A program made the translations under genes and the position numbers. This document shows positions 53,764 through 53,877 of a stretch of DNA of 60,315 bases, piece after piece. This DNA comes from an uncultured Candidatus Saccharibacteria bacterium (GTDB lineage: Bacteria; Patescibacteriota; Minisyncoccia; UBA6257; GWB1-50-10). The notes beneath the pieces are model-generated. The model was not told the origin of the DNA. It saw nothing but the letters and a program-made list of their open reading frames with translations, and ran no database searches. Position 1 is the first letter of the stretch. Each line of letters opens with the position of its first letter. The stretch spans positions 1 to 60,315 of the forward strand of contig CAYQPG010000001.1 of NCBI GenBank assembly GCA_964419525.1. Direction: 5' to 3'.

Positions 53764-53877
53764 TGGCGGAATTTCAAAATCCAAATTTCAAATGTCAAAA
53801 TTTGGGCTTTAGGCTTTGACATTGATTTGGCATTTGTTATTTGAGCTTTGTCATTTTTCCGAGTAAAATAAGCATCA

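Follow-up and report, generated by a model that had tools for sequence, protein, structure and literature searches.

Bacteria have been known to carry heptamer repeats since about 1990, and we know of no mechanism or function that has been established for them. In this study, we describe arrays of 7-nt units in the 60,315-nt contig CAYQPG010000001.1 of assembly GCA_964419525.1 (in the following the window, meaning this whole stretch), with emphasis on a palindromic pair of arrays between argS and ileS (53768-53860) and its relatives in the same and other genomes. Among the described systems, Rickettsia palindromic elements are selfish palindromes that occur between genes and, translated in frame, within conserved genes; they are net insertions of tens of residues and have no 7-nt internal period. 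In comparison, the coding arrays reported here measure 28-48 nt and are not net insertions of whole palindromes; a single site in rsmA is an insertion, of 12 amino acids (aa). Repetitive extragenic palindromes (REP) and bacterial interspersed mosaic elements (BIME) are short, conserved, imperfect intergenic palindromes with many dispersed copies, often located after stop codons and conserved between species; they are associated with RAYT transposases. Our elements differ in being longer and built of 7-nt units, and no Y1/RAYT gene was found in the genome.

According to a 2007 survey, as far as it is reported in PMC4692102, heptameric simple-sequence repeats (SSRs) are over-represented in bacteria, e.g., GGGAATC in Xanthomonas and GGGGA(T/C)T in Nostoc, and polymerase slippage was proposed for them. 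The heptanucleotides of Calothrix are summarized in Rehm et al. 2015 (PMC4692102). Our arrays share with long heptamer SSRs the tandem 7-nt units, the mainly intergenic location and the occasional inverted pair. Unlike the G-rich, quadruplex-forming SSRs, however, our units are degenerate and mostly A/T-rich, and the arrays are short (4-6 units). A further difference to bacterial heptamer SSRs is that our arrays form conserved dispersed palindromic families and, in essential enzymes, occupy fixed codon positions in frame.

In Nostoc, (TTTTGAA)n and GAC(C/T)AAT repeats lie near start codons, and a regulatory role together with a binding protein was postulated (bioRxiv 10.1101/2022.06.06.494920). 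These heptamers and the short tandemly repeated repetitive (STRR) sequences resemble our arrays in their location near promoters or start codons, and the Nostoc units TTTTGAA/TTCAAAA are close to our TTTGAAA/TTTCAAA. Our arrays differ in belonging to another phylum and a tiny genome, in forming palindromes that fill whole spacers, and in occurring also inside open reading frames (ORFs). They are not STRR sequences sensu stricto, since the latter are those of heterocystous cyanobacteria and our units, from a member of the Patescibacteria, are different and degenerate. The TAACTGA direct repeats of marine Beggiatoaceae, some Cyanobacteria and Bacteroidetes (MacGregor 2015, PMC4679880) are alike in that 2-6 heptamer copies lie within a few nt of start codons, in ribosomal and other essential operons, where a post-transcriptional role was suggested. 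They consist of a single fixed unit genome-wide and are rarely inverted, whereas many units coexist in our genome.

In view of these publications, the statement of the preliminary description of this DNA that no described element class has such an architecture has to be withdrawn. With at least three head-to-tail units, an excess of period 7, intergenic predominance and length variation by whole units, the tracts are tandem 7-nt arrays of the heptanucleotide-repeat class (long SSR, STRR-like). For Patescibacteria, no report of heptamer or palindromic repeat arrays was found in a limited literature collection. New with respect to the published heptamers are conserved palindromic families that fill stop-to-start spacers, and arrays that occupy the same codon positions of essential enzymes across genera and show concerted evolution.

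Period-7 arrays in the genome and its relatives

The genome analyzed (G000; its contigs are denoted by C-numbers, and the window is C1) comprises 496 kb in 50 contigs, is 81% complete and has a G+C content of about 49%. The public genomes closest to it were assembled from metagenomes and carry the labels Patescibacteria group, Candidatus Paceibacteria/Paceibacterota, Candidatus Jorgensenbacteria, and Parcubacteria group, and its lineage is Paceibacteria/Parcubacteria (Patescibacteria).

A tract was recorded where at least 16 bases within 21 nt equal the base 7 nt downstream (lag-7 score). Across the genome, 57 such tracts with arrays of 4-6 units were identified. Shuffles, which according to the preliminary description would refute the phasing if they gave repeats as often, yielded a mean of 0.7-1.3 tracts and a maximum of 3 (60-nt blocks), and a fourth-order Markov model yielded 0-1; the phasing is therefore not refuted by this control. 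The remaining lags between 1 and 21 gave 0-11 tracts each, exceptions being the harmonics 14 and 21. Thus, period 7 is the sole over-represented short period in the genome. For a single site, the false-discovery rate is about 2% at scores of 16 and above, about 17% at 15, and about 64% at 14.

By crude longest-ORF gene calls, tract density amounts to 0.67/kb in intergenic and 0.046/kb in coding sequence, a 14-fold difference, and still 21 tracts lie within ORFs. Perfect arrays exist, e.g., (ATTTGAA)x4 at three loci. Of the 21 coding tracts, 19 have the A-rich strand as sense strand. Since TGA, TAG or TAA would be contained in T-rich versions, this fits avoidance of stop codons, and it is equally in keeping with coding strands in this genome being A-rich in general. 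A/T-richness itself is no defining trait of the arrays, judged from the units GGGAAAT, AACCCTA, AGCTACA, and CTACTCG of relatives.

The same periodicity is found beyond G000. Loci of the same genus contain 15 lag-7 tracts in 52 kb (other lags 0-3), those of other genera of the order 26 in 136 kb (other lags 0-4, lag 1 excepted), and ileS loci of the wider Patescibacteria nine in 75 kb (other lags 0-4). For ileS loci of Bacillota, the respective number is two in 61 kb (other lags 0-3).

In the window, the coordinates and strings reported earlier were reproduced exactly. CAAA recurs at 53775, 53782, 53789, and 53796, and TTTG at 53826, 53833, 53840, and 53847, with further TTTG at 53801 and 53815; positions 7621-7643 and 53770-53792 agree at 21 of 23 positions, and the shared 10-mer, 15-mer and 11-mer each occur exactly twice. 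The 7-nt phasing holds as a genome-wide phenomenon. Not every site passes, however: 55029-55063, 27871-27887, 46000-46031 and, in spite of arrays in its orthologues, 7718-7755 are at noise level, and 38865-38925 has a period of 8. As evidence of kinship, the shared strings fare differently by length. Repeated 10-mers (2913 pairs vs 1389 in shuffles) and 11-mers (853 vs 347) were rated as chance-level, whereas 15-mers are unusual with 14 pairs vs 0.8. The focal element's long BLAST matches on other contigs give stronger support, for example the best family-A pair described below.

Some contigs start inside heptamer arrays (C41:1-29 and C49:1-34), and exact 55-nt overlaps are shared by many contig ends. 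Both observations suggest the repeats, together with the assembly k-mer size, as the cause of the fragmentation.

Palindromic families in intergenic spacers

Self-BLAST of the genome delineated a palindromic family, family A, with at least 13 long copies (Table 1) and 26 BLAST matches. A copy spans 90-140 nt, with a short loop between its A-rich CAAAT-type arm and its T-rich ATTTG-type arm. Typically, it starts at a stop codon, or within it, and stops 10-25 nt before the start codon of the next gene. The order of variant units is conserved among the dispersed copies. Paralogues within the genome are 75-89% identical, and the best pair reaches 95.5% identity over 44 nt (E = 2e-12). No consistent flanking direct repeat that could represent a target-site duplication was seen by inspection, with no statistics applied, in 13 family-A copies, whose arms are inverted.

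Two further families were found. Family B has seven copies, and the copies of the unrelated G+C-rich family C are about 95% identical; one piece of family C lies in frame within the cysteine desulfurase gene. The tpiA array of G008 contains sequence related to family C, as do the argS-ileS spacers of G005, G006, and G007. The second palindrome of the window, probable by its lag-7 score of 15 at 6262-6290, separates two convergent genes assigned by Pfam, a ComM/Mg-chelatase-like gene (4718-6256, +) and a LysM-M23 peptidase gene (6332-7345, -); its RNA fold has -20.3 kcal/mol (z = -3.1).

Within the genus, the number of family-A matches is highly variable: 26 in G000, 16 in G007, 12 in G005, 10 in G002, two partial ones in G003, one in G008, and none in G004, G006, and G001; the last three have arrays of other units at the corresponding junctions. 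The argS-ileS spacer illustrates this variability. The family-A palindrome of G000 corresponds to a palindrome of another unit (AATTTTC/GAAAATT) in G004 and to a G+C-richer palindrome sharing CATTTGAGCTTTG in G001. The spacer is short and has no array in G002 and G003, and contains G+C-rich inserts in G005, G006, and G007, which are near-identical in G005 and G007 and different in G006. An orthologous family-A copy in this spacer was found on the metagenome contig VFSW01001924.1 (L206).

Where orthologous family-A copies exist in two species, they are 88-95% identical. The argS-ileS arms of G000 and L206 agree at 68 of 73 positions (third-codon identity of the flanks 0.50-0.54), the tpiA-downstream spacers of G000 and G007 at 60 of 68 (0.35-0.49), and the C3:22243 spacers of G000 and G002 at 95 of 105 (0.45-0.48); in the latter, all 20 positions of the non-repetitive loop agree. 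Judged from these alignments, the intergenic family-A copies are far better conserved than neutral sites. On the same basis, it is firmly shown that species with saturated synonymous sites have retained the family consensus and some locus-specific loops. As paralogues in G000 are no closer to each other than orthologues and locus-specific loops are retained, the copies are old and constrained and do not derive from a recent burst. Orthologues also differ by unit steps, namely a 7-nt loss, a different unit duplicated per species, and a 21-nt difference.

G007 and G005 differ in two further places: when contig C4 of G007 (L058/L059) is compared with contig C2 of G005 (L060/L061), a 131-nt insertion with the inverted ends GGGCAGGCCCCCACACCTAAGCGAAAG...CTTTCGCTTAGGTGTGGGGGCAGG is present in G007 only, and one heptamer hairpin differs by a central 53-nt indel.

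Inverted arrays also bound genes of the PF05635 type (S23p, Avd-like four-helix-bundle; 23S rRNA intervening-sequence-type). G000 has a single one, whose cassette carries inverted TATAGGG/CCCTAAN arrays at both sides, and 26 of 41 relatives have 1-6 matches. In 26 loci inspected (L063-L091), the gene is almost always bounded by inverted arrays with a cassette-specific unit, mostly (TAGNNNN)n upstream and (NNNNCTA)n downstream; four cassettes have 8-nt units. With such arms, anything that reads into the cassette, from whichever side, meets a stop codon in each of the three frames. The cassettes resemble the focal element in using inverted short-period arrays as their two ends. The focal element, in contrast, has a loop of about 10 nt, contains no ORF and uses a unit different from that of the C20 cassette; it is not a PF05635 cassette. 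An obligatory partnership of PF05635 and family A is rejected, as G002 has 10 family-A matches and no PF05635.

Arrays inside essential genes

Arrays inside ORFs were compared with solved structures and with relatives. Two sites each in tpiA and fmt and three to four sites in ileS show length changes of at most 3 aa, and overall this is true for seven of eight cases examined. Because of these near-equal lengths, in-frame insertion was rejected as a general model for the coding arrays. In ileS, the array at 56486-56528 differs in length by 2 aa from the aligned T. thermophilus IleRS, and the one at 56857-56899 is 3 aa longer than solved IleRS. The weak inverted pair at 54622-54730 lies in a variable segment of constant length, collinear with relatives and without insertion; G005, G007, and L206 share its pattern, and G004 and G002 do not.

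The exception is rsmA site 1, where only part of the genus has a net insertion of about 12 aa. G004 carries (TTTCCAA)x4 at this site, G003 is 7 aa (21 nt) shorter, and G008, G006, and other genera have no insertion. At rsmA site 2, which by itself does not exceed the noise in G000, orthologues show clear arrays of other units (AAAAATT x4 in G004, TTTGTCA-type in G007).

In tpiA and fmt, the same codon positions carry arrays of 4-5 units in most members of the genus and in G025, a member of a different family within the order. Array length is mostly equal across species, and the units are species-specific: ACAAAAT, GGGAAAT x5, TCGAAAT x4, TTTCAAA x3, and AGCTACA x4 were found at fmt site 1, and AATACTA, AACCCTA, and CTACTCG x4 at tpiA site 2. 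Unit identity at fmt site 1 is 0.67 within an array vs 0.48 at the same position between species, which indicates concerted evolution. At fmt site 2, unlike site 1, the unit is conserved within the genus. The overall picture that these comparisons give of the coding arrays is one of positional persistence, with stasis punctuated by unit replacement.

Table 1: Positions of the arrays, palindromes and neighbouring genes. Positions without a contig number refer to the window (C1); scores are lag-7 scores unless stated otherwise.
Feature	Position	Strand	Remarks
Focal family-A copy	53768-53860	.	fills argS-ileS spacer; left A-rich arm 53770-53803 (score 16, strong), loop ~53804-53813, right T-rich arm 53814-53860 (score 14, backed by homology to family copies)
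argS	52180-53763		upstream neighbour of focal copy
ileS	53878-57396		downstream neighbour of focal copy; ATG at 53878
Promoter-like TTGAGC-17-TAAAAT	53841-53869	+	from consensus scan
Second palindrome	6259-6320	.	T-rich AGTATTT-type arm first, AAATACT-type arm second
AATTTTN array	7386-7415	+	score 15 (probable); ends 4 nt ahead of rsmA ATG at 7420
CAAA-type array within rsmA, site 1	7618-7667	+	encodes KNFKTQISNFKSNPKS; score 14, backed by homology/orthologue arrays
T-rich rsmA site 2, inverted relative to site 1	7718-7755	+	score 13 (noise level in G000 alone)
AATGACN array, 3' part of rsmA	8116-8148	+	score 16, clearly real; missing from the preliminary description
TTGAAAA-type array	36836-36875	+	score 17 (strong); reaches true mutM start, ATG at 36875 (MPELPEV)
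Weak inverted pair within ileS	AGTATNN 54622-54650, NATACTN 54703-54730	+	scores 14-15 and 15 (probable)
NNNAAAT array within ileS	56486-56528	+	encodes DKNSKYKIPNTKCNN; score 17 (strong)
CGAAATN array within ileS	56857-56899	+	encodes AKNPKSEIRNSKLL; score 19 (strong)
Sites not above chance	55029-55063, 27871-27887, 46000-46031		scores 13, 13 and 12
Period-8 site GAATTCNN	38865-38925	.	lag-8 score 16 vs lag-7 score 14
Family A, long copies	C1:53768, C20:1419, C20:3900, C30:76, C35:605, C40:2859, C3:17891, C3:22241, C14:9775, C26:2900, C5:4890, C13:3082, C27:5153		
Family B			AAATCCT/AGGATTT arms; span ~135 nt; 80-86% identity
Family C	C7:9486-9570, C38:1079-1163, C10:11469-11557, C23:6695-6775, C5:179-274, C20:1127-1167		G+C-rich palindrome of ~85 nt; core CCTGCCTGCGCCATGCCTGCGCATGCAGGAGGCAGG
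PF05635 (S23p/Avd-like) gene	C20:7824-8183		cassette C20:7778-8205

The ileS ORFs of G004 (L033) and G007 (L036) contain an extra in-frame N-terminal segment directly after MLDDSD, which is absent in G000, G002, and G005; the segment of G007 corresponds to 86- and 76-nt indels against G005. Just upstream of the mutM array, a canonical-looking terminator hairpin is located at 36780-36822 (GGCGGCA...TGCCGCC, followed by a T run), so ordinary G+C-rich terminators also occur in this genome. Elsewhere in the window, Rfam 15 locates a tmRNA gene at 51327-51665 (-) and a tRNA gene at 44632-44703 (+); an ORF at 51278-51676 (+) overlaps the tmRNA and is probably no gene. A type IV secretion-like locus at 10632-19992, including a VirB4-like gene, has a second copy on C16:445-9855 that is 73-78% identical.

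Proposed expression punctuation and its alternatives

The explanation we favour, with a probability of roughly 0.5, combines expression punctuation by the intergenic copies with unit-step slippage of the arrays. The arrays occupy fixed permissive places, i.e., short stop-to-start spacers, where two inverted arrays often meet, and variable surface segments of housekeeping enzymes. According to the favoured explanation, they would change through slippage at replication or through recombination out of register, MutS not having been found in the clade. The intergenic copies would act as punctuation of tightly packed gene rows: a T-rich arm would offer a -35-like TTGNNN hexamer every 7 nt, and the hexamer that lies 17 nt from a conserved TAAAAT in the focal copy would form with it a leaderless-type ileS promoter. 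In addition, the upstream cistron may end in an AU-rich hairpin formed by the two arms. Coding arrays would be tolerated passengers, kept in frame and constant in length by selection.

Promoter-like sequences at the focal copy are in line with this proposal, as a match to the sigma-70-type consensus. The -35-like hexamer of TTGAGC-17-TAAAAT lies inside the right arm, and the -10 ends 8 nt before the ileS ATG. TAAAAT is found 7-8 nt ahead of the ileS ATG in nine of nine genomes compared (TAAGAT in G001), whatever the upstream sequence is, which suggests that the ileS promoter is of the leaderless type and the ileS mRNA leaderless. Among family-A copies, the arrangement TTGNNN-16..18-TAnAAT-7..8-ATG was seen by eye in four of 11, which is suggestive.

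Several observations weigh against expression punctuation. These four are the only ones of the 11 copies with a good promoter arrangement, and the better-conserved arm faces a gene start in eight of 11, which is not significant. Tracts occur at tandem (16/185), convergent (2/46), and divergent (4/66) junctions without preference for any class, and the intergenic surplus itself comes from the crude gene calls mentioned above. The fold of the focal hairpin (-23.7 kcal/mol, z = -0.9) is not more stable than that of shuffles; RNAalifold on nine family-A copies gave a weak consensus of -4.8 kcal/mol and no compensatory pairs; and no terminator-like site was detected within 53600-54000. Unrelated CAAAT-type arrays already align at 75-89% owing to their low complexity, so that the excess in identity of orthologues over paralogues is only modest. 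Finally, the indel-length spectrum of G005 and G007, which are 96% identical over 42 kb, has no peak at 7 nt in this region.

Other assignments were rejected for the focal element and its family. The missing compensatory pairs speak against a conserved RNA hairpin in the nine copies. An intrinsic terminator does not agree with the lack of a terminator-like site within 53600-54000, the z-score of the fold and the presence of copies also at divergent junctions. No known RNA family was matched, as Rfam 15 at gathering score reports the window's tmRNA and one tRNA only. Ongoing simple 7-nt slippage between near-identical genomes is likewise rejected by the G005/G007 indels.

As to possible partners, Y1/RAYT transposases (PF01797) had no match in the 81%-complete G000 and matches in six of 14 control genomes. 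No reverse transcriptase (diversity-generating retroelement or retron type), no HutP and no MutL were found in G000. MutS (domain V family) was found in none of 41 genomes of the order and in 11 of 14 controls.

Since long stasis is followed by wholesale unit replacement at the same junctions and codon positions, the arrays would also fit the cis half of an undescribed trans-acting system, either an oligomeric protein that reads the sequence or a machine that maintains the repeats, with 'dialects' specific to each genome. Purifying selection would then act on the arrays, and a change in specificity would bring about concerted rewriting at many loci, including those inside essential genes; we consider both the system and this mode of evolution unlikely. 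Recognition sites for an oligomeric DNA- or RNA-binding protein, such as a nucleoid protein or a ring-shaped RNA binder reading one triplet per 7 nt, appear to us unlikely as well. HutP reads UAG-N4, i.e., a triplet every 7 nt. The arrays would be conserved, and replaced genome-wide, along with the specificity of the protein. Strong conservation of the intergenic copies appears compatible with this idea, which the preliminary description had raised as binding arrays, and family A conserves sequence and not pairing. Copy number differs sharply among congeners, other units are found at the same junctions in G004, and fixed triplets with variable neighbours are common (NNNNCTA in tpiA site 2 of several species, TAGNNNN in PF05635 cassette arms). 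Three units would correspond to 21 bp or two helical turns, and for Nostoc heptamers a binding protein was likewise postulated (bioRxiv 10.1101/2022.06.06.494920). However, no candidate protein was found, neither HutP in G000 nor, despite its 10 family-A matches, PF05635 in G002; many different units coexist in G000, which is ill-suited to a single specific binder, and the ORF arrays with their species-specific units look unconstrained.

The palindromes may instead be selfish non-autonomous mobile repeats, either like miniature inverted-repeat transposable elements (MITEs) or REP, or ORF-less derivatives of the hairpin-bounded PF05635 cassettes. A trans-acting enzyme would copy them into stop-to-start spacers, and their conservation would reflect recognition by this enzyme. 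The dispersed families with their conserved order of variant units, the patchy copy number in the genus, the substitution of element types for each other at the same junction, the inverted arrays around PF05635 genes of relatives and the arrays at contig ends all agree with mobility. Yet we regard it as distinctly unlikely. Neither a Y1/RAYT transposase nor a reverse transcriptase was found in G000, no target-site duplication was seen in the flanks, and the sole PF05635 cassette uses another unit, while G002 has family A without PF05635. Paralogues (75-89%, best 95% over 44 nt) do not resemble each other more than orthologues do (88-95%), and locus-specific loops are conserved, which points to old copies. 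MITEs would show young near-identical copies and an autonomous relative; neither was observed, where the search covered Y1 transposases and reverse transcriptases and not DDE transposases. Thus, of the tiny repeat or mobile element envisaged in the preliminary description, the dispersed palindromic family is retained and recent mobility is not.

A lineage-specific mutational process, also proposed there, is supported in part by whole-unit differences between orthologues, by concerted units within arrays and by the apparent lack of MutS. In its strict form, the arrays would be a functionless by-product of heptamer-biased slippage in a lineage with reduced repair, surviving where harmless. Arrays in all junction classes and many unrelated genes, the fast unit turnover at fmt site 1, MutS not being found in 41 genomes and the slippage idea published for heptamers (the 2007 survey as cited in PMC4692102) would agree with this. 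Neutral sequence, however, should diverge like synonymous sites, and family-A spacers are 88-95% identical at third-codon identities of 0.35-0.54; together with the missing 7-nt indel peak in the 96%-identical pair, this makes a mere by-product very unlikely. Practically no weight is left for chance or a compositional artefact of A/T-rich stretches. Some listed sites do score no better than shuffles, and the sharing of 10- and 11-mers is expected by chance, so that this reading holds for the four or five weakest sites only. For the phenomenon as a whole it is refuted by 57 tracts against about one in shuffles that keep local composition, and by lag 7 and its harmonics alone standing out, likewise in relatives.

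The lineage offers unusually clean comparative material for heptamer repeats, as the same spacer or codon position can be traced across species, genera and families, and these comparisons show strong conservation as well as wholesale replacement of units. For annotation, the arrays account for odd Lys/Asn/Ile/Phe-rich patches in essential enzymes and for some contig breaks in metagenome-assembled genomes. If the arrays are maintained by a dedicated factor, they would constitute a new kind of genome-wide cis/trans system. If the palindromes are expression signals, they would help to explain how transcription and translation are organized in tiny, regulator-poor genomes, whose genes often have no Shine-Dalgarno sequence.

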